This document shows, piece after piece, positions 2,621-37,422 of a DNA stretch of 38,548 nt. Under the pieces are notes generated by a model. The model saw only the letters and a program-made list of their open reading frames with translations, had not been told where the DNA came from and did no database searches. The position numbers and the translations under genes are program-made. Numbering within the stretch: the stretch's first letter is position 1; the number at the start of each line of letters is the position of its first letter. This DNA comes from a virus (lineage: Duplodnaviria; Heunggongvirae; Uroviricota; Caudoviricetes): IMG/VR virus record IMGVR_UViG_2718217885_000011, one strand, 5' to 3'.

Positions 2621-2732
2621 AACTGAAGTTGCCCTGAAAATGAAATTTTTTTGCACAACCGCAGAACTTTTCCGCAGGGCATCAGTCTTAATTAGTGCCA
2701 CTGCTTTTCTTTGATGTCCCCATTTTGTGGAG

Positions 2733-2776
2733 CCCATCAACCCCGCCATTTCGGTTCAAGGTTGATGGGTTTTTTG
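2733..2776 (+). terminator. rho-independent terminator downstream of ybjL
   Basis: perfect 10-bp stem cccatcaacc / ggttgatggg with 17-nt loop followed by TTTTTTG. Confidence 0.6.
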
Positions 2777-2855
2777 TTGCCTGAAATTTATGCCTTTTAA
2801 AATCATGATGTTAGAAGCACTGTTTTTTAACGATGGCGACATAATGGCGGCAGCG

Positions 2856-3074
2856 TCAAAGAGAGAGCGCCACCTGTCCTGATTTCATTGGATGCGGCTG
2901 AACCGGATTTGACTCTTTTGGCGTTGCAATCGAACGAACAAAAGTTTCATGGGTAACAAAAGTATGGCTGCAGTTAATGTTCTGGCACTGGTTGTAACGC
3001 TCTTTGGTCAATGAAGATACCTGAAAACTGCTGCGAGTATGGGCGGCACTTCCACACAGTGGGCAAATCATCAT
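2856..3074 (-). CDS. ogr: Ogr/B-family zinc-finger late transcription activator
   Basis: CPLCG...CQNINCSHTF C4 zinc-finger pattern as in P2 Ogr; probable start at internal Met (MICPLCG) giving ~72 aa; ORF track extends to 3107. Confidence 0.8.
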   Translation of the reverse strand: MMICPLCGSAAHTRSSFQVSSLTKERYNQCQNINCSHTFVTHETFVRSIATPKESNPVQPHPMKSGQVALSL

Positions 3075-3164
3075 TTTTCGAGTTCTCCCCATTTTTGCTA
3101 AATTCACAACAATGATACCGCATTATTCCATTTTGCAAACTTAAAAGTTCTCCATTGCGAAGAA

Positions 3165-4265
3165 TCATTCCATTTCGAAATCATCAATCCTCACTTCAAG
3201 CTCCAGACTGGTTGTAAAACCGTTATCCGGGCTGACGGTATGTGTCAGAGTCGTAATGGTCCATTCCGCATCATCTATCGGCTGTTTAAAACCACTGACC
3301 TTCACAGGCATTTCCGTGTAGAGATCTGCCCGCCCTTCTGCCAGTTGTAGCGAAAATGACGCAACGCCGCGTTGCAGGCGTTCCCACTGCATTTTCGCCG
3401 CTCGTTCGGCGTTGCTCCGGTTGGCATAAGTGCGATTAAGTACCAGCACGTTTTCATCCGTACCCACCAGGTAATCGCCCTGCTTCGCTTCTGGCTCTTT
3501 CTTCTGCTTCTTAGTTCTGCGCTTACGCTTCACCGTGGTGCTTTCTTTCTTTGCAGGTTCGCGGGTATGCAACCAGCTGGCAATTACGCCCGTGTAGGCT
3601 CCGCGATCTGCTAGGGTAAATCGGTGACTGTCGCCGTCCTTGCGTGTGATAGTGATCACTGGCAGAGGTTTACCAGTGGCGCTTTTGCCCTGCCCCTGCC
3701 GGATGAATAACAGATTGCCATTTTTCACCGACGCGATGGCACCGTACTGTCGCGCCAGCCGCATCAGAAAACTGCCGTCACTCTCATTAGTCTGGTCTAT
3801 ATGCTCCACTGGCTTATCCGACAGGTCTTTACCCAGTGCCATCTTCAGCTTGTGCCGCGCGGCTATTTCCTTCACCACTTCCCCGACGGTGGTCTTATGC
3901 CACGATTTTTCACGGCGGGTATTCAGCGTTTCCCGAAAATCAGCACTTCGCGCCCGGATAGTCAGGCGGTCCGGTGCGCCAGTGTGTTCAATCTCGTCCA
4001 CTGTGAATGCCCCTTTCGGGAAAAGCGGCTGCCCCTTCCAGCCCAGCGCCAGCGTAATAACCGCACCACGGCGCGGCAGCACGATTTTTCCGTCAGCGTC
4101 ATCCAGCTCCAGATCAAGCTGGTCCGCTTCAAAGCCCCGGTTATCCGTCAGCGTCAAACTCATCAGGCGGTTATCCAGCACAGTGGTGATATCCCTGCCC
4201 TCAATACTGATGCTGAATGCGGGAGTTTTGTTGCCTTTGTTAAGCAGTTCAGAGCTGAAATTCAC
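3165..4265 (-). CDS. tail protein D (late control gene D)
   Basis: 366-aa ORF, position and size as P2 gpD, immediately upstream of ogr and overlapping U stop. Confidence 0.9.
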   Translation of the reverse strand: MNFSSELLNKGNKTPAFSISIEGRDITTVLDNRLMSLTLTDNRGFEADQLDLELDDADGKIVLPRRGAVITLALGWKGQPLFPKGAFTVDEIEHTGAPDRLTIRARSADFRETLNTRREKSWHKTTVGEVVKEIAARHKLKMALGKDLSDKPVEHIDQTNESDGSFLMRLARQYGAIASVKNGNLLFIRQGQGKSATGKPLPVITITRKDGDSHRFTLADRGAYTGVIASWLHTREPAKKESTTVKRKRRTKKQKKEPEAKQGDYLVGTDENVLVLNRTYANRSNAERAAKMQWERLQRGVASFSLQLAEGRADLYTEMPVKVSGFKQPIDDAEWTITTLTHTVSPDNGFTTSLELEVRIDDFEME

Positions 4266-4747: not shown

Positions 4748-7700
4748 GCGTCGTATCCCCCCTGATCGCTGTAGTTACTCCTGGCTTTTGCCTTCAGCCT
4801 GCGTTCACGTTCATCAAGCTGGCGTGCCACCTCCCGCGCAATATCCTGCGCACTTTGTCCTAGCTGCGTCTGAATGATGATCTGCGTCGGTGCCTCAATC
4901 CGTTGAACGAGCGGCACAGTGGCTGCGCGACTCACAATTGCTTCTCCACCTTTCGCGGGAAGTGCCAAAGGGTGCAACGGTGGAAGCTCTGCTGGCGCGG
5001 CAGCAACGCCCATCATTCCGGCAACAACGGCAGCCAGTGCAGCTGTATTTCTCCGGCTGGTCACATTTGCCGGGCCGTTAACAATTTCCGGCCCGTTTTC
5101 ACCGACGATGCCAAACTGCCCGCGCGGGATATACCCGCCGCTGTCATACATCCCCGCAAAGCCATATCCCCATGATGGAAAACCACCCGATGGCATCATC
5201 ACTTTACCGTCTGCATTCACCGTCGCAGGTTGCTGACGCGTCACGCTTTCCGGCAGTTTTGCCTTTGCGGCCTCTTTACTGACAATGCCGAGCTTCTCCA
5301 GCAACCAGGAAACGCCGGATTTCAGGGAGTCCAGCGGATGCATGACCATATTCAGCCCTTCCGCCAGTGCCTCCCCGAATCGCCGCCCCATTGCCGCTGC
5401 GCTCTGCAGTTCGGCAGCGGTCGACTTAACGGGCGTCAGCAGATCAGTAAACCAGCCCCACAGCGCCTGCACTTTGTCGCCAATCCACTGGAACACGGGC
5501 TTAAGCGGTTCGAACGCTGCACTGATGGGACCTGCCGCCGCTTTGAATCCTTCCACCACGCCACCGAGAAATGCGGTGATGGGTTGCCAGTATTTCCAGA
5601 CAACCAGCGCCACGCCCGCCAGTGCAGTAACCACAAGACCTATCGGACTGAGCAGAGCACCTAACAGACCAGATATGGCATACAGGGCAACGCGCAGCAT
5701 CGCCAGTGGACCAGATGCCAGTACTCGCAGCACCGTGCCTGCGGCGGCCAGTCCACCGCGCAGTACCGCCAGAGGATTCATAAACATCACAGCAACAGCA
5801 CGTAAACCGGATAATCCAGACCGCAAAAGTGCAACCGGCGCACCTGCTACAGTTTTCAGGACATTTCCCGTCAGTGATGCCGTGCGGCGCAAAGACGACA
5901 ACGGCGCAGTAAGTAAACCTGCGGCGTTGCCCGATGAAGCAAGCCCGCGTCGCAGCAGTGCCAGTGGTGCGCCAGCCAGCCAGGACAACGCGCTGCTGGT
6001 TCGAGTTACTGCTGCCGTAACGGAAGATAACGTTTTGATACCCAACACAGAGAATCCCAGACGGATCACTGCCAGCGGCCCCAGCACTGCAGCCAGCGCC
6101 ACCGCTAAGGTGCCGAGGCCGACGGTAACCGCAGCCACAACAGCCGATGCTTTCATCAGTGTGCCTGTCAGTTCCGGGTTAGCTTCCACCCAGCGACGCA
6201 ACGCCCCCGTGACGCTTTTCACCGTGTACAGAATATCCATCAGCGGCTGGCGCAGCGTTTCGCCCAGGCTGCTGAAGGTGTTCTGCGCTCCGGTTTTGAC
6301 CAGCAACCACTGCGCAGAAAGTGAATCCTTGTTAATGTCGGATTCTTTCTGCATGGAGCCGAGCGCATCATTGCCCGCTGTCAGTTTTAACTGACGCTGC
6401 AGTTCCGGCAGGTTGTTTGCCAGTTTCGCCGCGTCATCGCCAAACTCTTTACCAAACAACATAGTCATGGCAGACAGGCGCTTGTCCTGCGGCAGCGCGT
6501 TTACCTTCTCCAGCACGCGCTGGATGGTTCCCATCGCATCCTTCGTCATCTGCTTTTCAATCACTTCAGGATTGAGTTTCAGCAGATTCATCCCTTCAAA
6601 GAAACTCTTGCTTTGCATGGTGGCAATGGACAATTCACGCACCATCGCGTTTGCTGCACTGGCTGCAACCTCTGGCGCAGCGCCCAGTGTCAGGAAGGTG
6701 GAACCCAGCGCCGCCGCTTTACGATAATCCAGACGGTCAGCCACACCGCCCAGACGTTGCATCACATCAATGATGTCTGCCCCTTTCGACATGGCGTTAT
6801 CATCCAGATAGTTCAGCGCATCACCGAGCTGTTCAATATTGCGGGTGGGGATTTTGTAGAGCTGGGCGATTTTCCCCAGACTTTCTGACAGTTCATCCGC
6901 TGGCAGCTCAAAGGCTGTTGCCGCCTTTGCTGCCGTACTGGCGAAGGCCAGCAGGTCACGTTTCTGATCTTCCCAGCTGTCGTCAGGGTTTGCGACGTTC
7001 ATGCGCGCACCACCTTCAACCAGTGCAGCGAAGTCCACCGCACCGTTTTCCATCGGCAACTGTTCGCTGGCAGCCTTGATGGCATCCTGCATTTCATAAA
7101 AACGTGCAGTGCGGTTGCCATTATCGTCACGCAGACCATTGACCTGCTTTGCCACACCTTTCATGGCATCTTCCATGCTGGTATAGCTTTTTACTGCCGC
7201 CATCACTGGCGCACCCATTGCCAGCCCTGCAGCCGTGGTGGTGGCTCCGGCACCTGCAATACGATCACGCACCTCCAGCGAACGGGCATAACTGGCACGC
7301 GCTGCATTCATCCTGCGCTGAGCTTCCCCCAGTCGCTTCAGCCGCGCCTCCTGTTTCGAAAGTTCCTGGTTATAACGTGATGTTTCACGGGCTAAACGGG
7401 CAGTTGCTCCCGCATCGTCTTTCGCAGAAATTCCCGCCCGGTACAGTTCAGCACGCACAAGCGCCGTCTGCTGCTGCAGCTTTTTCTGGCGTTCTTCCAG
7501 GCGCTGAACAGCCAGCCGTTGACGGCCCAGAGCAACAACCTGACGTTGCGAAGGCGGCCCCATCGCTCCCAGTTCCTGACTGAGCAAATTTGCACGCTGG
7601 CGGGCATAGTTCAGCCTGTCGCCTAATTTCTGATTTTCTGCCTGCAGCTTTCGGAAGCTGTCCAGACTGATCCCGGCCTGATCAAGCTGCTTTATTGCAT

Positions 7701-19463: not shown

Positions 19464-20114
19464 TCAGCGGCTGTCATTGCGCAGTCTGCGCTCCAGCTGC
19501 TGTTTGTCTTTTTTCACGCCACAGCGGGGATCGAGCTGTAACGCATGGTTGAGATGATTAAGGGCGGACGCCGGATTGCTTTCACTCAGGACAACGCCAA
19601 TCGCTTTATGCAGACGCGCCCGTGACTGGTCCGGCATATCCAGACCGTCTGTCAGCTCCAGCGTCTGCAGCAACAGATCAGCATCAAAGCCGGTGGCGGC
19701 AAGCATTGCGCTCTGCGCGGCGTCTGCCATTTCCTCTGCCAGCACGGTCTGCACGTTGCGGTTACCCAGCGGCATCACCCAGCCATGACGCAGGGCATGA
19801 CGCCCGATCTCCAGCGCTCCGGCATAATCTCCGGCATCAATGCGCCACAGCATCACGTACATCAGCACGTCATCCTGTTGAGCGCCTCCGGCAGCCAGGA
19901 CACCCTCTGCCCAGGCGGCGTACTTCGGCAGCAGCTCCACCTTGATTTCCGCTTTTTTGACCGTGGACTGAACGCCCTTGAGACGGCGGCGGTCTTCCGC
20001 CAGTTGCAGCAGCATCAGGTCATAGCCCGATGCGTGGCGAACACTGCCGCCCTCGCGGGCGGCCTGTTCAGCCTGAACGCGCAGGCGATGCTGCCGTGCG
20101 GGACTCAGGCTCAT
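19464..20114 (-). CDS. terminase endonuclease (small) subunit M
   Basis: 216-aa ORF, P2 M position. Confidence 0.85.
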   Translation of the reverse strand: MSLSPARQHRLRVQAEQAAREGGSVRHASGYDLMLLQLAEDRRRLKGVQSTVKKAEIKVELLPKYAAWAEGVLAAGGAQQDDVLMYVMLWRIDAGDYAGALEIGRHALRHGWVMPLGNRNVQTVLAEEMADAAQSAMLAATGFDADLLLQTLELTDGLDMPDQSRARLHKAIGVVLSESNPASALNHLNHALQLDPRCGVKKDKQQLERRLRNDSR

Positions 20115-22168: not shown

Positions 22169-23935
22169 ATGAACACCACACTGACACCCGCAGATCTCGA
22201 TCCCCGTCGGCAGGCCATGCTGCTGTACTTTCAGGGATACCGCGTAGCCCGCATTGCTGAAATGCTGGGCGAGAAAGTTGCAACCGTTCACAGCTGGAAA
22301 AAACGCGACAAGTGGGGTGACTATGGGCCGCTGGATCAGATGCAGCTCACCACCGCCGCACGCTACTGCCAGCTCATTATGAAGGAGCACAAAGAAGGGA
22401 AAGATTTCAAAGAGATTGACCTGCTGGCGCGCCAGTCGGAACGCCACGCGCGGATCGGCAAGTTTAACAATGGCGGCAACGAAGCCGACTTAAACCCTAA
22501 CGTCGCCAACCGCAACAAAGGCCCACGCCGGCAGCCGGAAAAGAACGTTTTCACCGATGAACAGATTGAGAAGCTGGAAGAAATTTTCCATTCCTCCATG
22601 TTCAACTACCAGCGCCACTGGTGGGAAGCCGGAAAAACCAACCGCATCCGCAACCTGCTGAAGTCACGCCAGATCGGCGCGACCTTTTACTTTGCCCGTG
22701 AAGCCCTGATTGACGCCCTGCTTACCGGACGTAACCAGATTTTCCTTTCCGCCAGTAAGGCACAGGCCCACGTCTTTAAACAGTACATCATCGACTTCGC
22801 CAAAGAAGTGGAGGCGGAGCTGAAAGGCGATCCGATGGTGCTTCCCAACGGGGCCACGCTTTACTTCCTCGGCACCAATGCCCGCACTGCCCAGAGTTAC
22901 CACGGCAACCTGTATCTGGATGAATACTTCTGGATACCGAAATTCCAGGAGCTGCGCAAAGTGGCTTCCGGTATGGCTATTCACAAAAAATGGCGACAAA
23001 CCTATTTTTCCACACCATCCAGCCTGACACACAGTGCTTATCCGTTCTGGTCCGGTGCGCTGTTTAACCGTGGGCGCAACAAAGCCGATAAGGTGGACAT
23101 CGACCTGTCCCACAACAATCTGGCCCCCGGCCTGCTGTGCGCAGACGGGCAATACCGCCAGATAGTCACCGTGGAAGATGCGGTACGCGGCGGCTGTAAC
23201 CTGTTCGACCTCGACCAGCTACGCATGGAGTACAGCCCGGACGAATATCAGAACCTGCTGATGTGCGAGTTCGTGGACGATCTCGCGTCCGTGTTCCCGC
23301 TCAGCGAACTGCAGGCGTGCATGGTGGACAGTTGGGAAGTCTGGACCGATTTTCATGCACTGGCCCTGCGCCCGTTTAGCTGGCGCGAGGTGTGGATCGG
23401 TTATGACCCGGCAAAAGGTACGCAGAACGGCGACAGCGCCGGATGCGTGGTGGTGGCACCGCCAGCCGTGCCAGGCGGTAAGTTTCGCATTCTTGAGCGT
23501 CACCAGTGGCGCGGGATGGACTTCCGCGCCCAGGCTGATGCAATCAAAAAACTGACCGAGCAGTACAACGTGACCTATATCGGCATCGACTCGACAGGCG
23601 TCGGTCACGGGGTTTATGAGAACGTGAAAGCGTTCTTTCCTGCCGTCCGGGAGTTTGTCTACAACCCCAACGTTAAAAACGCTCTGGTACTCAAGGCCTA
23701 CGACATTATCAGCCACCGCCGTCTGGAGTTTGACGCCGGACACACCGACATAGCGCAGTCCTTTATGGCAATCCGTCGCGCCACCACCGCCAGTGGCAAC
23801 CGCCCGACCTATGAAGCCAGCCGCAGCGAAGAAGCCAGCCACGCCGATCTGGCATGGGCAACGATGCACGCACTGTTTAACGAACCGCTGCAGGGCGAAT
23901 CCGCCAATACCAGCAATATTGTGGAGATTTTTTGA
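22169..23935 (+). CDS. terminase ATPase (large) subunit P
   Basis: 588-aa ORF divergent from O, P2 P size. Confidence 0.9.
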   Translation: MNTTLTPADLDPRRQAMLLYFQGYRVARIAEMLGEKVATVHSWKKRDKWGDYGPLDQMQLTTAARYCQLIMKEHKEGKDFKEIDLLARQSERHARIGKFNNGGNEADLNPNVANRNKGPRRQPEKNVFTDEQIEKLEEIFHSSMFNYQRHWWEAGKTNRIRNLLKSRQIGATFYFAREALIDALLTGRNQIFLSASKAQAHVFKQYIIDFAKEVEAELKGDPMVLPNGATLYFLGTNARTAQSYHGNLYLDEYFWIPKFQELRKVASGMAIHKKWRQTYFSTPSSLTHSAYPFWSGALFNRGRNKADKVDIDLSHNNLAPGLLCADGQYRQIVTVEDAVRGGCNLFDLDQLRMEYSPDEYQNLLMCEFVDDLASVFPLSELQACMVDSWEVWTDFHALALRPFSWREVWIGYDPAKGTQNGDSAGCVVVAPPAVPGGKFRILERHQWRGMDFRAQADAIKKLTEQYNVTYIGIDSTGVGHGVYENVKAFFPAVREFVYNPNVKNALVLKAYDIISHRRLEFDAGHTDIAQSFMAIRRATTASGNRPTYEASRSEEASHADLAWATMHALFNEPLQGESANTSNIVEIF

Positions 23936-24966
23936 TGGGAAAGAGTAAGAAGAACCGAGCTGCGGCGACGAAACAGATCCAGCTTAAAAGTCAAACTACA
24001 GCCGAAGCATTCAGCTTCGGCGATCCCGTTCCTGTTCTGGACCGCCGTGAACTGCTGGACTATGTGGAATGCGTACAGATGGACCGCTGGTATGAGCCTC
24101 CCGTCAGCTTTGACGGACTGGCGCGCACCTTCCGCGCTGCCGTGCATCACAGTTCCCCGATTGCAGTAAAGTGTAACATTCTGACCAGTACCTATATCCC
24201 TCATCCTCTGCTCAGCCAGCAGGCTTTTTCGCGTTTTGTGCAGGACTATCTGGTATTTGGCAATGCCTATCTGGAGAAACGCACGAACCGCTTCGGTGAA
24301 GTGATCGCCCTTGAACCTGCGCTGGCAAAATACACCCGACGCGGATTAGACCTAGATACCTACTGGTTTGTGCAATACGGTATGACAACCCAGCCGTATC
24401 AGTTCACGAAAGGCAGCATTTTTCATCTGATGGAACCGGATATTAATCAGGAGATCTACGGCCTGCCCGGTTATCTTTCTGCCATTCCGTCAGCCCTGCT
24501 CAACGAGTCCGCCACGCTGTTCCGCCGTAAGTATTACATCAACGGCAGCCATGCAGGCTTCATCATGTATATGACCGATGCCGCGCAGAACCAGGAGGAT
24601 GTGAACAACCTCCGCAACGCGATGAAAAGCGCCAAAGGCCCTGGCAACTTCCGCAATCTGTTTATGTACTCGCCTAACGGCAAAAAGGACGGACTTCAGA
24701 TTATCCCGTTGTCAGAAGTCGCAGCGAAGGATGAGTTTCTGAATATCAAGAACGTGAGCCGTGATGACATGATGGCTGCGCACCGCGTGCCACCACAGAT
24801 GATGGGGATTATGCCAAGTAATGTTGGCGGGTTTGGGGATGTGGAGAAGGCCAGTTGCGTCTTTGTCCGTAACGAACTGATGCCTCTACAAAAACAACTC
24901 GAGGGGCTCAATGAATGGTTAGGGGAGAAAATTATGCGTTTTGAAAAATATGAACTAACTCTTTGA
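23932..24966 (+). CDS. portal (capsid vertex) protein Q
   Basis: 344-aa ORF, start overlaps P stop, P2 Q size. Confidence 0.9.
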   Translation: MMGKSKKNRAAATKQIQLKSQTTAEAFSFGDPVPVLDRRELLDYVECVQMDRWYEPPVSFDGLARTFRAAVHHSSPIAVKCNILTSTYIPHPLLSQQAFSRFVQDYLVFGNAYLEKRTNRFGEVIALEPALAKYTRRGLDLDTYWFVQYGMTTQPYQFTKGSIFHLMEPDINQEIYGLPGYLSAIPSALLNESATLFRRKYYINGSHAGFIMYMTDAAQNQEDVNNLRNAMKSAKGPGNFRNLFMYSPNGKKDGLQIIPLSEVAAKDEFLNIKNVSRDDMMAAHRVPPQMMGIMPSNVGGFGDVEKASCVFVRNELMPLQKQLEGLNEWLGEKIMRFEKYELTL

Positions 24967-24984
24967 GTTTCAGAGAAAATAGAG

Positions 24985-25006
24985 GCGGCGGTATGAATAC
25001 CGCCAA
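24985..25006. terminator. hairpin between convergent Q and cargo operon
   Basis: ggcggtat-ga-ataccgcc inverted repeat between the two stop codons. Confidence 0.4.
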
Positions 25007-25009
25007 CTA

Positions 25010-25711
25010 TTAAATTTCCCTTTCAAGAATATGAGAAACTATTGTCTCAGTTAAATATTTAACCATACCCTCGTTAGCACAGACAGAACCATTCTTCGAT
25101 ATCTCAAATTCACAACGATGTCCTAGAACATATCCTGCCGCCCTGACCTTATCAAGAGAATATGCTTTATCCCCAATAATATCCTTCACATCATCAAATG
25201 CATTTTTCTTAGATGTAACCTCTACGGTTGCCTTAGAGTTATCATTAACTATCAAATTACTAACCTTAACCTTCTTGATACTAACAAGTTCCAAATCATA
25301 TTTTTTATGCAGCGAATCCAAATACTCAGACAGTTTAATATCAACGATGCCAAACCCTATTTTATAACCTGAATCCGCACTAAGTCGCTCTGTCAAAGCC
25401 TTTATTGATTTTGGTGGATTGTAAACTGATAATAAATATAACCTACCTATGAGTTTAGATATAGAGAACTGAATTGACTCATAAGTAATGAACTCTTGTT
25501 CATTTTCGTTACCCAAAGGATCAACTGAAGTCTGTTTATTCAACTTAGCTTCAGTATACTTAGCTGATAGTACGTCAGATGAAACTTCAAAGTCAGAATA
25601 ACCATAGCCAAGTTCTTCAGAGTATTTGTTACTCTTTATATAAAAAGCAATCTCACTTAATGTAAGATTAGACTTCAATCTATTCCATTTAACTCTGATC
25701 AGACTTTCCAT
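25010..25711 (-). CDS. cargo operon gene 3, hypothetical protein (233 aa), no recognisable domain
   Basis: ATG start with GGGGAAG SD-like sequence, 23-nt overlap with the upstream gene; AT-rich codon usage unlike the phage core. Confidence 0.7.
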   Translation of the reverse strand: MESLIRVKWNRLKSNLTLSEIAFYIKSNKYSEELGYGYSDFEVSSDVLSAKYTEAKLNKQTSVDPLGNENEQEFITYESIQFSISKLIGRLYLLSVYNPPKSIKALTERLSADSGYKIGFGIVDIKLSEYLDSLHKKYDLELVSIKKVKVSNLIVNDNSKATVEVTSKKNAFDDVKDIIGDKAYSLDKVRAAGYVLGHRCEFEISKNGSVCANEGMVKYLTETIVSHILEREI

Positions 25712-26813
25712 CTTTCTTCCCCTGAGCCTGTTTATTTAGTTCAATTATAATGGAACGGGCTGCCTTTTCAATCATACGACTAAAAAATAACTTCTGACTA
25801 TCTTTCAACTGGACTGTTGACTTATTATACTCGCCACCCCCTTTGTATTTTTTAATACCTTTAGCTATATATGAAAACCCCTTAAAATTTTGAGCGTCGT
25901 TAAATTGCGCTTCAAACTCAAAAATATTTGGATCCGCACCTTTCTCTTTAACTCGCCATTTAATTTTACATATATAAAAGCCACGCTCATAAAGTGAGTA
26001 GATTTCTTCAGATTTGAGCACCCCTTCCCCTTTCAACGATGCCTTACTAACATGTACTCCTAAATCTGTTTCGCCGTCTTCCTCTTCAATCTCTTCTGGT
26101 TTTGGGTGATAAACATAAGCATCTGTTACATCATCGAGTTCATAACCTTCAAGCCCATTTATTAATTTCGTAAAGAAATCAGTTCTGGACTGAGGGGAAT
26201 CAATGTTTTCTAGACTTATTTCTTGGATATCGAGAGTAGCGTCCGAAATTGGTTTTCCTTCCTCAATCGCTCTTTCCTTTGATAATCTTTCAACGATAGC
26301 AAGTAACTGATTCTCATAAACCTCAGTTTGCTCATTATCTGGACGGCGAATCACATAACCAGCTTCTGTTGGCTCTACCTCTATGACAGCTTGCTTTTTA
26401 ACGACTTGTTTGAAATCACTTTTTGAAAAATTTGTTGACATATAAGTTATATGAATATTTATCATGCCACTTTTATCAGCAACTATATGGCAGAGGTCTT
26501 TTTGGTCTGTTAACTCTTTTTTTAGCGAATCCGCCGCTTTTAATAAAATTGTTTTTTCAGGCATATTAGATACTAATCTTGAAGTAGAACGCTCCCTCCG
26601 AGGCTCACTTCCTAATATCTCTGCAATTTTCTGATGATCATAGTAATCATGAGTGAACTTTGAGAAGTTTTTAGCTAATAATTTTCTATCGGTGTTTTTT
26701 GAAATAATTATACCTCTTGAAAGATAAAGCTCTCTCATCTCATTTTGAGTTACTTGTGACTGGTTAAGAGCATCACATAAAACCTTATCCGTCACACTAT
26801 AAATATTGCTCAT
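25689..26813 (-). CDS. cargo operon gene 2, hypothetical protein (374 aa) with acidic stretch, no recognisable domain
   Basis: ATG start 1 nt after the stop of gene 1 (TGA-T-ATG); long uninterrupted AT-rich ORF. Confidence 0.7.
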   Translation of the reverse strand: MSNIYSVTDKVLCDALNQSQVTQNEMRELYLSRGIIISKNTDRKLLAKNFSKFTHDYYDHQKIAEILGSEPRRERSTSRLVSNMPEKTILLKAADSLKKELTDQKDLCHIVADKSGMINIHITYMSTNFSKSDFKQVVKKQAVIEVEPTEAGYVIRRPDNEQTEVYENQLLAIVERLSKERAIEEGKPISDATLDIQEISLENIDSPQSRTDFFTKLINGLEGYELDDVTDAYVYHPKPEEIEEEDGETDLGVHVSKASLKGEGVLKSEEIYSLYERGFYICKIKWRVKEKGADPNIFEFEAQFNDAQNFKGFSYIAKGIKKYKGGGEYNKSTVQLKDSQKLFFSRMIEKAARSIIIELNKQAQGKKDGKSDQS

Positions 26814-26814
26814 A

Positions 26815-27879
26815 TCAATAATCCCAAGATGTTGATTCAGTACTATAAAACTCTTTAACTGTAGGAACTAAATAAATATCCATAGAAAGTAGTTTTTCCT
26901 TTGCACTATCATCATAATTCCAATCAAAAGCATACTTCTGAAGTGCCCGTTTAAAATGCGATCTTATTGAATCATTCCGATCTTTTGTCGCGATACGTAT
27001 TCTTATGTTGTTTTTTCCATTCAGAATCTGGTAGTTAGTTAAAAGATCAAAGAGATAATAAAACTCCATATCTGTGGAGCCCGGACGATTATAATATACA
27101 ACATACCCTGCAGGATAAACTTCAACTTCTCTTTGTAGCTCGCGATTATACGAGTAAACTGCATCATGTTTAATAATTAAAAATGGAGCAGTCAAAGACT
27201 CTATCGTTGCAGGTAAATAATCATCGGTGACAATTACCTTATGATATGTAAGTTGAGGGTAATAAAAACCATACTCATCTCTCGGGAATTGATTATCTCT
27301 GATTAATTCATTCATATCTGCGATTATAGATAACATATAGCTAATCGACTTAGGCTCAATTATATGTATTTGTTGCCCATCAGACACTTTTATATTATCT
27401 AATTTAACTGCCTTCGGCTTTCTTTTTCTTCCTGCAGGTTTGGGAGGATCGAAGAAATCATAAAAGTTATGCTCAAAATCGTTATCATGATTATAAACAA
27501 ACAATAACCCTCTAACCTCACTATCCCCAACGCATATATTATATTTCTCTCTCCACTCCGGACTATATTGAGCACAGGAAATTGTATACCCTAGGGATGT
27601 CAGCGCTTTTTCTATCATGTCAGGATTAATAGAACCCTTAGAGTAACTTTTTAGGTCAGTATTCAATAAAATAGTTTTATTTAAATAAGGGTCTTTATAG
27701 CTAAAAACCACATCGACAGGGTGTGTATGAGCCTGCTTTTTTTCGAGTGGTTTATGATTTTCTTCGTCAATACATCCAAAGTCCTGATCACACGGCCCTG
27801 ATATGCTCCATTTAAAGCGCTCAAAAATCTTCGATGATACTATCTTTGCTAATTCTTCTATCGGTCCGTTCTCAGCCAC
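26815..27879 (-). CDS. cargo operon gene 1, hypothetical protein (~354 aa); possible PD-(D/E)xK-like motif (HPVD ... ILLNTDLK)
   Basis: ORF open to TTG at 27912; GTG at 27879 preceded by AAGGGGA is the preferred start; no P-loop. Confidence 0.65.
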   Translation of the reverse strand: MAENGPIEELAKIVSSKIFERFKWSISGPCDQDFGCIDEENHKPLEKKQAHTHPVDVVFSYKDPYLNKTILLNTDLKSYSKGSINPDMIEKALTSLGYTISCAQYSPEWREKYNICVGDSEVRGLLFVYNHDNDFEHNFYDFFDPPKPAGRKRKPKAVKLDNIKVSDGQQIHIIEPKSISYMLSIIADMNELIRDNQFPRDEYGFYYPQLTYHKVIVTDDYLPATIESLTAPFLIIKHDAVYSYNRELQREVEVYPAGYVVYYNRPGSTDMEFYYLFDLLTNYQILNGKNNIRIRIATKDRNDSIRSHFKRALQKYAFDWNYDDSAKEKLLSMDIYLVPTVKEFYSTESTSWDY

Positions 27880-28007
27880 AATACATCCCCTTAACCTGAT
27901 CTTTCTCGGCAAAATCCTATGGACAAGATAAGTAAATCATTGTTCCTTTGCAAGAATGGAGGCGCATTATGCTTAGTAGTGAAATATGACATCAAGCGCG
28001 CGCTCGT

Positions 28008-28026
28008 ATCCCCGCCACGCCTGCCC
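28008..28026. other. probable cos site (cohesive end region)
   Basis: reverse complement reads GGCGTGGCGGGGATACGAG; first 12 nt match the 19-nt cohesive end of phage 186 as recalled, P2's differs at one of them. Confidence 0.45.
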
Positions 28027-28400
28027 GCTTTATGCAGTGGTTTTCATGCACATGCATAACATGAGCAAAAGCCCGCCAGTTCTGGCGGATCTGAGCAAAG
28101 ACGATCCTCAATCGATCATGCGATTTCATGCAGCATAGTCATGCACTGTCAAGGAAGTGAAAATCCGTATCTGAATGGCCACTTGAAAAACGGATCATAC
28201 GGGTTTACAAAGATGAATGTTCGCTGTGAACGGGAAGCGGAAGTTAACTTTCAGATAACATAATCCATATGCACGAGAACCTCTAAAATAGAATGGGACA
28301 CCTAAGCGGGGTACTTACAACGATTCTTTCCATATTCACAGTTAACACTCTGTTTGGCGTATTTTTATTCAAATAGCAAACACCAATAAAAGGAGTTTCC

Positions 28401-28736
28401 ATGAACAATATTCCCCCTATACCACAGTTAGGAATTTATGTCTCAAAAATCGATCCCACCCTACGTATCACTGTAACCGATGTTGATATTGTTGATGGTG
28501 AGGATGATTCTCCTGATGATGAATTGTTTTATTTAGTCCACTGGATCGAGGGGGAAGATGAAAGTGATATGACAGCAATGGGATTTGAGCTAGACCCAGT
28601 AGAGTGGCAGGCTTTCGTTGAATCTGAGCAATTAGTGTTTGAGCGTGATCCGTACATGGATTCAATCCCCGAAAATTCAAACTTGGCAAAGATTCGGGAT
28701 TTTCTCATGAAGACTAAACAGAATGATCATTCGTAA
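28401..28736 (+). CDS. small highly acidic hypothetical protein (111 aa)
   Basis: ATG preceded by AAAGGAG SD; strongly acidic (Asp/Glu-rich); AT-rich. Confidence 0.65.
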   Translation: MNNIPPIPQLGIYVSKIDPTLRITVTDVDIVDGEDDSPDDELFYLVHWIEGEDESDMTAMGFELDPVEWQAFVESEQLVFERDPYMDSIPENSNLAKIRDFLMKTKQNDHS

Positions 28737-28928
28737 GTGTAAGCATCCATCAGGAAAATGGTTTTGTAAGTGAATCATCAACTTTTAGAGAGTCTCAGAC
28801 ACTCCCACTTCTGCTTCTGACACAAAGCGGACGATCACTTATCAAAATAACCGCCCACCTTACGCCTTATTTCACTCATTGCCCAAACTAGCCCCCATCA
28901 GAATGAATCCTCCTGGGGGCAACATTTC

Positions 28929-29162
28929 TTAATGCAGCCAGCTGTCGTCCTCCCACACCTTCTGCATAATTTTCATCACTTGTTTTCTTTCTTCATCCAG
29001 TTGCAGTCCGGTTAGTTCCACACCGTTAGAGCTACCTTTGCGAATGCGAATTACCGTTTTGGGATACAGGGGGCGCAGATTGCGGTAAAGCTCGGATTCA
29101 AGGGCGTCCAGGGTAGACTGGCTAATCTTCTGCTCTTTATCGATCATTATTTCAATGCGCAT
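28929..29162 (-). CDS. DinI-family protein
   Basis: MRIEIMIDKEQ...VWEDDSW resembles E. coli DinI (MRIEVTIAK...TWESADDW); GAGGTGA SD before the internal ATG; ORF track extends to 29234. Confidence 0.75.
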   Translation of the reverse strand: MRIEIMIDKEQKISQSTLDALESELYRNLRPLYPKTVIRIRKGSSNGVELTGLQLDEERKQVMKIMQKVWEDDSWLH

Positions 29163-29172
29163 AAAAGTCACC

Positions 29173-29361
29173 TCAGCTGATGACATCCATTGAGCGGTTG
29201 TATTCGTGGCTTCTGATTTTTGCCATGAGTTCATCAGTCAATTCAGAAACCCACTGCAGAGCCAGCCCCTTCTCTTCATCACTACACTCACTAGCCGCTA
29301 CAAGCTTAAGAAAAAAATCAATGCGCTGGAGCTTCAAAGACTCCAAAAAATAGTCCTGCAT
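29173..29361 (-). CDS. small hypothetical protein (62 aa), first gene of SOS-box operon
   Basis: ATG with AGGAGG SD; LexA box about 45 bp upstream. Confidence 0.55.
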   Translation of the reverse strand: MQDYFLESLKLQRIDFFLKLVAASECSDEEKGLALQWVSELTDELMAKIRSHEYNRSMDVIS

Positions 29362-29403
29362 CTTTCCTCCTATGACACCAAAACAATACTGTATAAATAA
29401 CCA

Positions 29404-29419
29404 CTGTTTATATTTACAG
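29404..29419. promoter_or_regulatory. LexA (SOS) box CTGT-N8-ACAG
   Basis: aCTGTttatatttACAGta matches the consensus taCTGTatatatataCAGta at all conserved positions. Confidence 0.6.
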
Positions 29420-29513: not shown

Positions 29514-31928
29514 TTAATACAGGTTCCGCCACTTATCATCTTCCTTCAGACGCTGGTTCCGATAGAAGATACGCAGGCCTGCTCCTGACGGAATACTGCC
29601 GCCGCGAAGGAGCAAATCGACTTCTTTCTCGCTGCCATCAAATCCCCTGGACTTCAGTTCATAGACGAGCTGCTGTCGCTGATGGTCTGTAATTCGCTGT
29701 TTGTAGTCTTTACGCCGTTTCGGTTTCACCTGGCGTAACCTTGCAGCCAGTTCCCGGCGCTCTTTTTTGCTCATACTGTGCAGGTAATTGTGCAACTCCT
29801 TGTCATTCATACGGGTAATATCCGTTCTGGAGTCCCCATCAGCTGATTTGTCTTTCCCTTGCTGGTTCAAATTTTCAGCAAGGGGACAGTTATTGCCACG
29901 AGTCCAAGGGGCGCAAGCGCCCTGGTCGGCTGCCGCCTCCTGAACGTCAACGGCCTTACGAACCATTTTCCACTTCACTGCATGAGTGCAGATCTTGCCC
30001 TCTGCAATGGGTGACCAGATGCCATAAATACGAATGCCGTGATCGCCATAGGCGGTCGGCTCTTCGTTGATTTCATAAGCGGTTCTGATGAGGTGATATT
30101 TGCGGGGAACCAGTACGCCGCCCTGCTTCATGATGTAGGTGGCAAAACAACCAGCATCAGCAGCAGCCAGGATGGCATCAAGGCGTGGGTTATCCAGTAC
30201 CGGCGCACCTGCTTTTTTGTCCCCCTGTTGCCTTGCCGCCTGACCAGCCAGCAATCGCAGTTCACGGTAAGCCTGACGCCCCGGAATGCCAAAGAAGCGG
30301 AATTGCTGAACACGATGCAGAGACGCCCAGGCATTAACGTATTCAGCGTTATCACGCAGGGATTTACCCGTTTCCTTGCTGATCTCGCCAGCCAGACCAC
30401 GCCCGTCAATGTTCTTACTGATGTATTTCGCGATGTAGCTTGTTGGCGTACCTTTGCGCGGGTTTATCAGCTCAGACTTAAAGCGTGGTCCTGTGTTATT
30501 ACCCAGCTCCTCGCGGTCTTCACGAATGGCAAACTTACGCAACAAAGCAGTAATGGCGCGGCGATCTTTTTTGCGCATAAAACACAACAGGTGCCAGTGA
30601 ACTGTACCGTCATGATGCGGCTCAGCCACCCGCACGCCATACCAGCGCAATCCGGCTTTGTACATCGCCTTACGAAATGCAGCAAACATGCCGACCAGAT
30701 AATCACTGCTTTGTCTTACCGTCGCATTTGTCCAGGTCGGGTTGGGCCTGCCGTTATTTAGCGTGGAATGGAAACGTGACGGACAGGTGATGGTGTAGAA
30801 AACGGCGCAGTCGCCACGCATTTCCGCGATAAGCTCCAGACCTTTAACACAGGCCATCATCTCATTGCGGCGATGCGCAGGGTTGCTGCTGCTGGCGTTT
30901 ACCACATCCTCCATGTCCAGAGTGTCGCCGTCTTCGTTCACCAGTTCATGAGAACGGAAAAACTCCAGCGACTTACGGCGCTGCTCACGTTTATGCATCA
31001 CGGCTTCATAGCTGACATAGGGAGATGCTTTTTTGCTGACAAGGCAGACAGCACGCAACTGCTCTTCCCGCCATTCGCAACGCATCTTCCATAATTTCCG
31101 ATACCACCAGTCGGCGCACAACATACGCGCCAGCGAACCCGGAATGAGTTCATAGGGCACGGGTTTACGGCGGTTTCTTTTCCGACGGAGTTGCTCAAAC
31201 GCAGGCGGGATGACATCCAGACGCACGGTTTCCGCTGCCACCTTTTCCCATGTCTTGCGGATTTCTGCTGGCTTAACGTCATCGGTGGCATACAAATCGC
31301 CACAAGCTGCATCAAGGCACATGCTCATATGCGCAGCTACCAGGGTGGACAGGCGTTTCACCTGATCCTGACTCATTTCAGGCAGGATCAGCAGGCCGTC
31401 CAGCCCTTCATGGCTTGCCATAAAGCGAAAAGAAGTGGATAGCTGACTGTCGCGTACATGCTCCAGTCGTTCAAGACATGGCTTAATCGTCTCACGCAAA
31501 TAGCGGAAATAAGCCTTTGGCCTGCCCAGGCTGCTGAAGTATTCAATACGTTGCATCAGCGGCTTGCTGATGTGGGAAGGCTGGGCATTGACGTCCGCCA
31601 GAATGACCATTTCTGGATTAAAACGCTGCTGCTCATGCGCCAGCTTTGCCCGGCTAATGAGCTTATCCTGCTCCATTCCGCGTTGGACAGGATCACGGGA
31701 TTCATTAAAGAAATAACGCTCCCAGACCTGCTCACTCAGTGCCTCGTGGCGCAGTTGTTCCTGCTCGTTATCGGCAGCGTACAGAGTGATCAGGTTTGAA
31801 AGTGCAGACTCCGGCGCAACTTCCGCCGGGTCCAGATAAGGGTTAATGGCCTTTTTCGGGCCGTTCCATGAAAATGATGCAGCGGCCTCGTTAAAGCCGC
31901 TAGAGTTGCTCATATCGTCATAACTCAT
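29514..31928 (-). CDS. replication initiation protein A (rolling-circle HUH endonuclease)
   Basis: 804-aa ORF with HWHLLCF (HUH) and YIAKYISK (catalytic Tyr) motifs as in P2 gpA. Confidence 0.9.
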
Positions 31929-34670: not shown

Positions 34671-35609
34671 ATGTCAACTCAAAAAATCACATTTCGCCAT
34701 ATTGAAGATAGTCTGAAAGCTATGGTCATGCAGAATCGTGGAGGGCAAAAAGTCATTGAGAGGATACTCAAGGCCTATGGTTTCAAATCACGCCAAGCCT
34801 TCTGTAAGCATCTTGGTATTTCACAAAGCACAATGGCTAATAGATATGCACGCGATACCTTCCCTGCTGATTGGGTTGTTATATGTTCAATGGAAACTGG
34901 CGCATCCCTAGAATGGCTGGCCTTTGGTTCTAACAATGCAGAAGAAAGTTTCCCCCCTTATGTGGAACAACATGATGAAACAGTCCCACATGAGGGGTTT
35001 AACAGCAACGCTCATCAATCATCCTTTAAGCGCCGCATTGAGAATCACATTGAGCTTACTAACGGAGGAAAAGCCGCGATAGAGAGGATTGTTAATGCTT
35101 ACGGGTTTAAAACCCGCCAAGCCTTAGCCGACCACCTTGGTATTTCAAAAAGCACATTAGCCACACGATACATGCGAGATTCTTTCCCTGCGGATTGGGT
35201 GATTAAATGCGCATTAGAAACCAAAGCGGATCTCGCCTGGCTAGTTACAGGAATCGAAACACCAAATAGTTCACAAGAAGAAAACACTGTAATTTTAAAT
35301 AAGTTCAATTTGGTCAATGGCGTGCTTGTCGAGTCAGGTTTTTTATCCATGGATCGGTGTCTACTTCCGAAGCAAGAAACTAGCAGCTTGATGTTTGTAA
35401 GCAATGGAGAAAAACATGTCATATGTGATAAAGAATTTCACCTAATTAGAGATGGAAAATGGTTAGTAGGAATTGACAATGAGTTATCTTTAAAAGAGTT
35501 AACTCGTTTACCTAAGAACAAAATTCTTGTTTCTGGTGGGAGTAAGGATTTTGAGTGTTCCATTGAGGATATTCAAATTATAGCCAGCATTATCTTAACA
35601 ATACAATAA
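34671..35609 (+). CDS. CI-type immunity repressor (186 CI family) with tandem duplicated N-terminal HTH domain
   Basis: two ~65-aa repeats (IERILKAYGFKSRQAFCKHLGISQSTMANRYARDTFPADW... / IERIVNAYGFKTRQALADHLGISKSTLATRYMRDSFPADW...) plus a C-terminal domain resembling 186 CI. Confidence 0.8.
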   Translation: MSTQKITFRHIEDSLKAMVMQNRGGQKVIERILKAYGFKSRQAFCKHLGISQSTMANRYARDTFPADWVVICSMETGASLEWLAFGSNNAEESFPPYVEQHDETVPHEGFNSNAHQSSFKRRIENHIELTNGGKAAIERIVNAYGFKTRQALADHLGISKSTLATRYMRDSFPADWVIKCALETKADLAWLVTGIETPNSSQEENTVILNKFNLVNGVLVESGFLSMDRCLLPKQETSSLMFVSNGEKHVICDKEFHLIRDGKWLVGIDNELSLKELTRLPKNKILVSGGSKDFECSIEDIQIIASIILTIQ

Positions 35610-35652: not shown

Positions 35653-37422
35653 ATGAATCATCATCTTTCAAAGATTTCTATAAAAAACTTTAGATCTTGC
35701 AAAGATATTGATATCAATTTTTCTTCATTCACGCCTTTAATCGGTTACAACAATGCTGGTAAGTCAACGATTTTAAATGCTATTGAATGGCTTTTTAAGA
35801 AAAAACTTTTGTCCTCTGATGATTATACTAATCCAGATAACCCTATAGAAGTTATAGGTACAGTTAAGGGTATTACTGAAGATATTTTGTCAGCTTTAAC
35901 AGAAGAAAACAGAACTAGAATTTCACCCTACATTATTGATGGGGTATTGATATTTAAGCGTCAACAGACTGTTGGTGCTCAAAGTGCAAAAGACGTCAGA
36001 TTATTAATTAAAAACCCAGAAAATAACGAATTCAGGACATCACCAACGGGTATTGAGAATGCGATAAAAGCTTTATTTCCAGACCCAATACGTATAGGTG
36101 CAATGGAAAATGCAGCGGATGATTCTTCAAAATCAAAAACAGGAACTACAATAGGTAAGTTGCTGGCAGAATTGAGTTGCAAAATAGAAGAGAAGCACAC
36201 TCAAAGGATACTAAGCCATTTAAATGCCGTTAATAGAAGAATGACTGCAACCGGTAATAAACGAATATCGGACCTCAATGATATTGATGATTCAATAAGT
36301 AGTAAACTTGCTGATTTCTTCCTTGGGATAAGTTTAAAACTACACTTCGAACTCCCTGACTTCAAGGATATATTTAAATCTGGGACTGTAAAAGTATATG
36401 AAGATTCATTTCCCGGCATTGCTCGTGACTGTTCTTCTTATGGTCATGGCACACAGCGTTCGATTCAGATGTCTCTAATAAGACATTTAGCTGATATAAC
36501 CAACGGTGATGATATTAAAACAACTACTCTACTGTTAATAGATGAACCTGAGTTATATCTTCACCCATTTGCTATCGAACAAATTAGAGAATCTCTAAAA
36601 ACACTATCTCATCATGGATATCAAATAATTTTCTCTACCCATTCATCTCAAATGATTACCTCTGACTTAGCAAAAGACACTGTGTTAATCAGAAAAAACA
36701 GTCAGCGTGGCACTCATTGCAGATTAACATTAAAAGAAGCAGTCAATAAAGTAATCGAACAACGACCAGCACAAGCAACCCATTTATTTTCATTAACACA
36801 GTCTTCAAAAGTTTTGTTTGCTAACAATGTAATACTAACAGAAGGTAAAACAGAGACTACTCTGCTCCCATTTATTTTTAACAAAGTTAAAAATAAAACA
36901 TTAGGTCAGATGCAAATAGCACTAATTGAAACAGGGTCCGTTGAAAGTATATCTAAAACGATGCAAATTCTAAATTCAATGGATATACCTACAAAAGCAA
37001 TTGTTGATTTAGATTTTGCGTTCCGCGGTGCAATAAGGAACAACTTCTTAGAACATAATGACGAGGATATTTTACGACTAAAAGAAATCTTGAGAAGTAT
37101 GCATGCTAATGGAGAATGCACTCTCGATGGATCCGGTTTGCCTACAAAGGGTAGTAACACTACCGCAGCTGAAGCATTTGCTATTATGTCTCAAAAGCCC
37201 GGCGCCAGAGAATTTTTGTCATCATTAGCCGCAAAACTGAGAAATGCAAATATTTGGATTTGGCTAAATGGTTCGATAGAAAACCATTTGGGTCTTACAG
37301 AAAAAAATGAATCAGTATGGGCTGATTTCAAAACAAAAGCAGATACACAACCTCTTTCAGATATCTGTGCAGATTTCGAAAGTATTGAGGCTTTAGTCGA
37401 CTGGATTACCCCTGACGTATGA
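35653..37422 (+). CDS. OLD-family ATP-dependent endonuclease (ABC-type ATPase + TOPRIM), P2 Old-like class 1
   Basis: Walker A GYNNAGKST, Walker B LLLIDEPELYLHP, FSTHS, then TOPRIM-like VILTEGKTE and VDLDF; 589 aa (P2 Old ~586 aa); strong GGAGG SD. Confidence 0.85.
   Translation: MNHHLSKISIKNFRSCKDIDINFSSFTPLIGYNNAGKSTILNAIEWLFKKKLLSSDDYTNPDNPIEVIGTVKGITEDILSALTEENRTRISPYIIDGVLIFKRQQTVGAQSAKDVRLLIKNPENNEFRTSPTGIENAIKALFPDPIRIGAMENAADDSSKSKTGTTIGKLLAELSCKIEEKHTQRILSHLNAVNRRMTATGNKRISDLNDIDDSISSKLADFFLGISLKLHFELPDFKDIFKSGTVKVYEDSFPGIARDCSSYGHGTQRSIQMSLIRHLADITNGDDIKTTTLLLIDEPELYLHPFAIEQIRESLKTLSHHGYQIIFSTHSSQMITSDLAKDTVLIRKNSQRGTHCRLTLKEAVNKVIEQRPAQATHLFSLTQSSKVLFANNVILTEGKTETTLLPFIFNKVKNKTLGQMQIALIETGSVESISKTMQILNSMDIPTKAIVDLDFAFRGAIRNNFLEHNDEDILRLKEILRSMHANGECTLDGSGLPTKGSNTTAAEAFAIMSQKPGAREFLSSLAAKLRNANIWIWLNGSIENHLGLTEKNESVWADFKTKADTQPLSDICADFESIEALVDWITPDV

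Follow-up and report, generated by a model that had tools for sequence, protein, structure and literature searches.

In phages of the P2 family, the packaging substrate consists of monomeric circles, and the steps of terminase binding, nicking and linear packaging follow the P2/186 paradigm, drawn here partly from general background and partly from the annotation of sequence records. The GenBank records of the reference phages open at their annotated cohesive ends (GGCGAGGCGGGGAAAGCAC for P2 and GGCGTGGCGGGGAAAGCAT for 186), and the end of PSP3 is annotated as identical to that of 186. A 55-bp cos core needed for packaging is credited to Ziermann & Calendar 1990 in the relevant passages of PMC3931495 and PMC5694545. 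Cargo next to cos has been described as well: passages of PMC5694545 present the interval between cosL and the portal gene (cosL-gpQ) as a hotspot (citing Dodd & Egan 1996 and Nakayama 1999) and place retron Ec67 between cos and a packaging gene, and the gpA-gpQ interval beside cos is described as a hotspot of defence genes, for which 1650 arrangements are known in E. coli (Rousset 2022, PMC9122126; 2026 NAR). The “hp + hp + hp” system (pFR109), originating from a P2-like prophage in E. coli E1114, protected against P1 when cloned (PMC9122126).

The locus analysed here is of this documented kind: its cos site, the type of that site and its cargo architecture have all been described before, and the feature is an ordinary one. 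In the window (the whole stretch of DNA analysed, 38,548 nt of the IMG/VR virus record IMGVR_UViG_2718217885_000011), positions 27996-28146 are very probably the cos site of a Fels-2/186-like (Peduoviridae) prophage and form a fixed pivot between two exchangeable cargo slots. The window contains a P2-family prophage, reversed relative to the standard P2 map, with the gene order ogr (2856-3107), tail genes D, U and T, capsid genes, gpM, gpP, gpQ, A, 186-type CII and CI, and integrase. The small terminase subunit (gpM-like) was encoded at 19464-20114 on the minus strand (Pfam Phage_term_smal, E = 2.2e-40) and the large one (gpP-like) at 22169-23935 on the plus strand, with complete matches to Pfam Terminase_5, Terminase_6N and Terminase_6C; the first presumably reads the cos block and the second presumably makes the staggered nicks. 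The portal gene gpQ/W (Pfam Phage_portal) occupied 23932-24966 on the plus strand, its stop codon being the outer edge of the portal-side slot, and the replication gene A (gpA) occupied 29514-31928 on the minus strand; cos was found between the gpA side and gpQ, in a genome with a gpM/gpP-type terminase.

Some features of the prophage lie away from cos. A RybB sRNA gene (2700-2778, plus strand; Rfam RF00110, 105 bits) was located directly beside the prophage end, with ybjL (935-2620) upstream of it in the same host flank, and rybB is the apparent integration locus of the prophage, whose second att site lies outside the window; no att direct repeat was found inside the window, since the window ends at the integrase stop codon. 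The CI-type repressor ORF (34671-35609, plus strand) encoded 312 aa, with two Phage_CI_repr matches and a CI C-terminal domain. The CI protein of 186 has about 190 aa, and the longer ORF could be explained by a duplicated or fused gene, or by an ORF call that runs too far. An OLD-family nuclease gene (35653-37422, plus strand; AAA_15 plus an OLD-like TOPRIM domain, 35% GC) was inserted between the genes for the CI repressor and the integrase. This insertion is a second, separate cargo slot, and the integrase-primase interval is listed as a minor defence hotspot (2026 NAR).

The 19-nt cohesive-end sequence GGCGTGGCGGGGATACGAG was located at 28003-28021 on the minus strand, has the P2-family form GGCG(A/T)GGCGGGGA... 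and was present in a single copy in the window. It was identical to 186 at 15 of 19 positions and to P2 at 14 of 19, and the likeness ran on into the flanks, which bears out the resemblance to the P2/186 cohesive end proposed by the sequence-only reading. The position given there (about 28008-28026) was 5 nt too high, though within the interval to which that reading had assigned the site (27913-28400). Its placing of the site between a three-gene operon and an acidic ORF, and not beside Q, was correct: the 19-mer was 3036 bp past the portal stop codon (24966) and was flanked by the start of the operon (ORF 27912; probable GTG 27879) and by the acidic ORF (28401-28736). No second GGCGTGGCGGGGATACGAG-like site was found in the window when up to 3 mismatches were allowed. 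If the GC-rich motif resembled the P2/186 cohesive end by chance alone, the only point in favour would be its shortness; with 0.01 matches expected by chance, and with 151 bp of flanking homology in 89 phage records and in 1263 of 5426 complete E. coli genomes, the probability of such a coincidence is negligible.

For comparison with the experimentally defined sites, the right end of each of P2, P4 and 186 was joined to the left end, and the product was compared with the reverse complement of the window. The junctions aligned with the window in a gap-free register from about -125 to +25 with respect to the first cos base, with the flanks in the same register in all three phages: CATAAAGCGGGCA upstream, and GCGCGC directly after the 19-mer. 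The homology to P2 and P4 spanned -29 to +26, and this 55-bp span matches the “55-bp cos region” of Ziermann & Calendar 1990; in the equivalent core of the window (27996-28050, minus strand) 42, 43 and 44 of the 55 positions were identical to P2, P4 and 186 respectively.

The limits of the whole conserved unit were taken from a per-position conservation profile of 77 unique sequences, with the loci aligned on the 19-mer. Conservation was about 0.95-1.0 inside the block and dropped sharply beyond either edge to about 0.4, as expected at random; with these edges at -125 and +25, the conserved unit is the 151-bp block 27996-28146 (minus strand). GC content followed the same limits: 54% in the block and 55% in the phage core, vs. 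35% (24967-27995) and 41% (28147-28928) in the flanking slots.

Several elements were common to the aligned cos junctions: a proximal stretch, ATGCA..TGCAT.AAAACC....AAAGCGGGC(A/G), shared by the window, P2, P4 and 186; a distal group of TGCAT repeats; and a GC-rich hairpin (t95b in 186). The TGCAT repeats formed two clusters on the minus strand (28032-28145: proximal 28032-28057, distal 28117-28145), with 6 copies of TGCAT/ATGCA in the 151-bp block against 0.26 expected and none of 5000 shuffles reaching 6. The right-arm region that holds them was conserved out to -125, in the register of P2, P4 and 186. These clusters may be recognition elements of the small terminase subunit. Conservation was asymmetric, extending over 125 bp on the A side vs. 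7 bp on the Q side, which suggests that the recognition determinants are on the right arm.

The hairpin, followed by a T run (28072-28089, minus strand), was detected by a terminator scan and was kept in 186, P4 and the Fels-2 group; it is a predicted counterpart of t95b, which is annotated in the 186 record, and would end transcription coming from the A/DinI side. A terminator-like hairpin inside the block, and the position of the block exactly at the exchange point of cargo modules, are what one would expect if the block were kept mainly as a terminator or insulator, a recombination site or a small RNA, with the packaging site elsewhere. Against this, the window held no second cos-like sequence, the block, 19-mer included, was collinear with the junctions annotated as cos in P2, P4 and 186, a terminator alone needs no invariant 19-mer plus GCGCGC, and Rfam gave no family in the cos region (best match mir-4012, E = 0.51, noise). 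Such a function in place of packaging is very improbable.

As a packaging site, the block is predicted to receive one nick per strand (minus, 28022|28021; plus, 28002|28003), staggered so that 5' overhangs would remain. These positions were derived from the annotation of the 186 record, and as the last six bases of the 19-mer are unlike those of P2 and 186, their exact placing follows from the register alone. The exact 19-mer was present in at least 120 IMG/VR stretches; about 80 of them were listed, and in none of these was it at the first or last base of the stretch, although the scan covered contig fragments only. One contig (L083) was considered as a physical cos end, because it stops 175 bp past the portal stop, the cos location in cargo-free relatives; its end was the terminus of an IS element and not cos.

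During lytic growth, the gpM/gpP terminase of the prophage itself would recognise the 151-bp block, with most of the recognition probably falling to the approximately 125 bp towards the replication genes, where the two TGCAT clusters are. The terminase would nick 19 nt apart at 28003-28021, leaving 5'-GGCGTGGCGGGGATACGAG overhangs, and a linear genome with 19-nt 5' overhangs would be packaged. Homology predicts a mature genome whose left end runs from cos through Hp1, Hp2 and Hp3 into the 3' end of the portal gene and whose right end runs A-orf62-DinI-(DUF8087, on the opposite strand)-t95b-like terminator-cos. The position of cos would in this way fix the map of the mature genome, with the three-gene (3HP) operon and the DUF8087/SOS module at opposite ends of the packaged DNA. 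The block must stay and its neighbours are non-essential, so it would be a fixed pivot between 24967-27995 and 28147-28928; the simplest route for exchange of the slots would be homologous recombination, with shared sequence supplied by the portal gene, the cos block and the DinI/A genes.

The site might also be a true cos homologue that has lost its activity, a relic within a prophage that is defective or oversized, in which case no DNA ends would ever be made at this locus. The prophage measured about 35.8 kb or more (counted from position 2856, in ogr, to 38548, where int ends), enlarged by the 3HP and DUF8087 cargo and by the OLD-like gene (35653-37422), three blocks in all; P2 has 33.6 kb, 186 has 30.6 kb and SEN8 35.2 kb, the last marking the upper end of the virion-verified range, and the left attachment site lies outside the window. 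These points fit a relic, but the genes for terminase, portal, capsid, tail, replication and regulation were all full-length ORFs. Ten of the 151 positions of the block departed from the family consensus, each with a base common to at least 3 other unique sequences; with no private substitution, the block showed no changes suggesting decay. Blocks of equal length were present in two infectious phages, Salmonella phage SEN8 (138 of 151 positions identical) and Yersinia phage MLG42 (137 of 151). The record of SEN8 opens with the identical 19-mer, labelled “putative cos site” (position 1); SEN8 is a plaque-purified, CsCl-banded infectious phage whose cos position comes from annotation rather than from mapped ends (PMC5427200). 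A relic is improbable, and an active cos site remains the preferred reading.

The portal-side slot (24967-27995, 3029 bp, 35% GC) carried three collinear genes on the minus strand: Hp1 (26815-27912; PADLOC Hp1, E = 5.5e-64), Hp2 (25689-26813; PADLOC Hp2, E = 2.5e-47) and Hp3 (25010-25711; PADLOC Hp3, E = 6.9e-9). PADLOC alone named the operon; Pfam and NCBIfam gave no informative match for the three proteins. The start of Hp1 is probably the GTG at 27879, and RefSeq annotates a CDS of 1065 nt for Hp1 in E. coli Res13. The BLASTP identities to the pFR109 proteins, in conserved order, were 39% for Hp1, 32% for Hp2 and 20% for Hp3 (E = 3e-12), giving three collinear Hp1-Hp2-Hp3 homologues of the “hp + hp + hp” (Rst_3HP) type. 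On general background and the pFR109 alignments, we take the names of the PADLOC models to denote Rousset's 3HP system. Judged by sequence, the operon of the window is a diverged homologue of that validated defence system, and it can be identified as lysogenic-conversion (defence) cargo in a well-known hotspot. Hp1 also had a sub-threshold NCBIfam match to the antiphage protein GapS4a (E = 3.2e-9, 36 bits vs. a cutoff of 270), which hints at a distant link between 3HP and GAPS4.

A promoter-like site (TTGATG, 18-nt spacer, CATAAT; 9 of 12 consensus positions) was found at 27966-27995 on the minus strand, opening at the first base outside the conserved cos block, and is a candidate promoter of the 3HP operon. 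Another terminator-like hairpin was detected by the terminator scan between the Hp3 stop and the portal stop (24986-25005, minus strand). The operon had been described as lying “upstream” of Q; it lies beyond the 3' end of Q and is convergent with it, so that it is not upstream in the sense of transcription.

The DinI-side slot (28147-28928, 782 bp, 41% GC) carried the acidic ORF (28401-28736, plus strand, 111 aa). Pfam, PADLOC and NCBIfam gave no match for this ORF; in an E. coli relative, RefSeq annotates a collinear CDS of equal length (336 nt) as a DUF8087 domain-containing protein, the two being matched by position and length. Beyond the slot there was an SOS module on the minus strand (28929-29419), comprising a LexA box (29404-29419), a 62-aa ORF (29173-29361) and a DinI/Tum-like gene (28929-29234; Pfam DinI, E = 1.2e-22). 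The LexA-box pattern CTGTTTATATTTACAG matched once, at 29404-29419, upstream of the 62-aa ORF and the DinI/Tum-like gene.

The variability of both slots was examined in relatives collected by an IMG/VR scan with the portal protein, which returned 80 loci with portals 92-96% identical. The motif was found downstream of the portal gene in 75 of these loci, the other 5 being truncated contigs, and the 19-mer was identical in 72 of the 75 and differed by one base in the remaining 3. The distance from the portal stop to cos varied from 174 to 3521 bp (median 1689), and 2 of 75 loci had no cargo there, with the bare spacing of about 175 bp known from 186/P2. The distance from cos to DinI varied from 204 to 4508 bp (median 965), with no cargo in 19 of 67 loci; both slots were occupied in 47 of 67. 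The DNA flanking the 151-bp block on both sides was unrelated, non-homologous cargo among the 75 relatives, and on the portal side homology between relatives ended exactly at the portal stop codon. The last 100 nt or so of the portal gene (24860-24966, plus strand) showed much greater divergence between relatives than the remainder of the gene did, which is consistent with recombination junctions inside its 3' end.

Clustering by k-mers in 77 loci distinguished 53 types of cargo on the portal side and 26 on the DinI side, which occurred in 71 different combinations, and many cargo types on either side were paired with several partners across cos. The portal-side cargo of the window was shared only with E. 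coli Res13, whose DinI-side cargo differs; the DinI-side cargo was present in 5 relatives, with five different portal-side cargos; and the pairing of 3HP with DUF8087 was absent from the 77 other loci, Res13 having only the 3HP half. As the cargo types assort independently across relatives, the two slots are exchanged independently and are separated by the cos block. The proposal that cos splits the accessory region is upheld by this assortment among 75 relatives and by the sharp boundaries of the 151-bp island.

Gene content between gpA and gpQ was variable among these near-identical phages (77 loci, portals at least 92% identical), and defence genes were part of it: retrons, Abi, AIPR, GmrSD, PIN and OLD-type genes were found in relatives. 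E. coli genomes with flanks about 97% identical carried retron Ec67, retron St85, PIN, GmrSD, OLD-type or P-loop genes instead of 3HP. The polarity of the portal-side cargo was surveyed in the portal-to-cos interval of loci L015-L094 (24967-27995 in the window). All ORFs of at least 90 aa read from cos to portal in 56 of 65 distinct cargo types, and this strand held 97% of the ORF residues. DinI-side cargo was of mixed orientation (23 minus-only, 14 plus-only, 9 mixed), so that the “divergent” arrangement of two modules expected by the sequence-only reading, which does hold in this window, is general for the portal side only.

The 3HP operon was on the portal side in two cases, the window and locus L052; loci L042 and L055 and E. 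coli E1114 had it on the DinI side. The assignment of the validated E1114 system to the DinI side follows from its published clone, which extends from the left of a Fels-2-type cos to the DinI stop. In all five cases the operon was read away from cos.

Beyond the survey, Fels-2 had a single cargo gene on either side of cos and SopEPhi two per side. In SEN8, one gene for a hypothetical protein and one for an HNH endonuclease separated cos from the portal gene, and E. coli phage 813R9 also had cargo between portal and cos. In Yersinia phage MLG42 the same block was present in a stretch that has no portal side. E. coli C, the classical P2 indicator strain, had a 100% identical block (NZ_CP029371.1, 1221612-1221762) beside retron St85 cargo. 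One contig (L168, IMGVR_UViG_3300011853_000021) had two inverted cos blocks (3447-3465 and 6704-6722), each with portal and DinI genes; it was rejected as a genuine double cos, being a head-to-head junction of two partial phage genomes and probably an assembly chimera.

Taken together, these patterns tentatively suggest, with the balance somewhat against it, that the gpA-gpQ hotspot of Fels-2/186-like phages consists of two slots with different rules: a portal-side slot read almost without exception towards the portal, from a promoter next to cos, and a DinI-side slot of mixed orientation, with 3HP accepted in either and read outward. In the literature searched, neither a two-slot substructure with a portal-side polarity rule nor a single defence family on either side of cos was found spelled out. 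If the substructure and the polarity rule are undescribed, they would point to a constraint linking packaging-site function to the acquisition of defence genes; possible constraints, if this is true, are the avoidance of transcription through cos and the expression of cargo from freshly injected DNA ends. The 151-bp block provides a landmark for splitting the gpA-gpQ hotspot in about one quarter of complete E. coli genomes, and the current understanding of P2-family packaging is unchanged.

The closest known systems are SEN8, Fels-2, SopEPhi and the Felsduovirus/186-like prophages, including the retron Ec67 prophage: their 19-mer was identical to that of the window, their blocks matched at 131-138 of 151 positions, and cos was likewise located between portal-side and DinI-side cargo, so that only the cargo differs. 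In 186 and PSP3 (Eganvirus) the likeness comprised the 19-nt 5' cohesive end, the 55-bp core, the TGCAT repeats, the t95b-like hairpin and a right arm with a DinI/Tum SOS module; the SOS-controlled p95-tum antirepressor operon of 186 was collinear with the LexA box-62-aa ORF-DinI/Tum module of the window. However, in 186 and PSP3 the terminator tW is the sole element in the roughly 175 bp that separate cos from the portal stop, whereas the window has 3 kb of cargo there, and the last six bases of the 186 cohesive end are unlike those of the window (ATACGAG in the window against AAGCAT in 186).

P2 and P4 share with the window the architecture, the register and the gpM/gpP-type terminase, but the P2 cohesive end differs at 5 positions, and all cos-proximal cargo of P2 (old, tin) is on the A side, with none between cos and Q. 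The cos of lambda (cosN/cosB) also has a sequence-specific terminase, staggered nicks, 5' cohesive ends and an asymmetric recognition region beside the nick; its overhang is 12 nt long and has no sequence similarity to the cos of the window. For the three-gene operon, protection was shown for the 3HP system of E. coli E1114 alone, and the version in the window, 20-39% identical, is known from its sequence. The gpA-gpQ hotspot of Rousset 2022 is the same interval, with very high diversity and defence content as in the window; in the literature searched, the hotspot is treated as a single one “adjacent to cos”, whereas here cos is an internal pivot between two slots.
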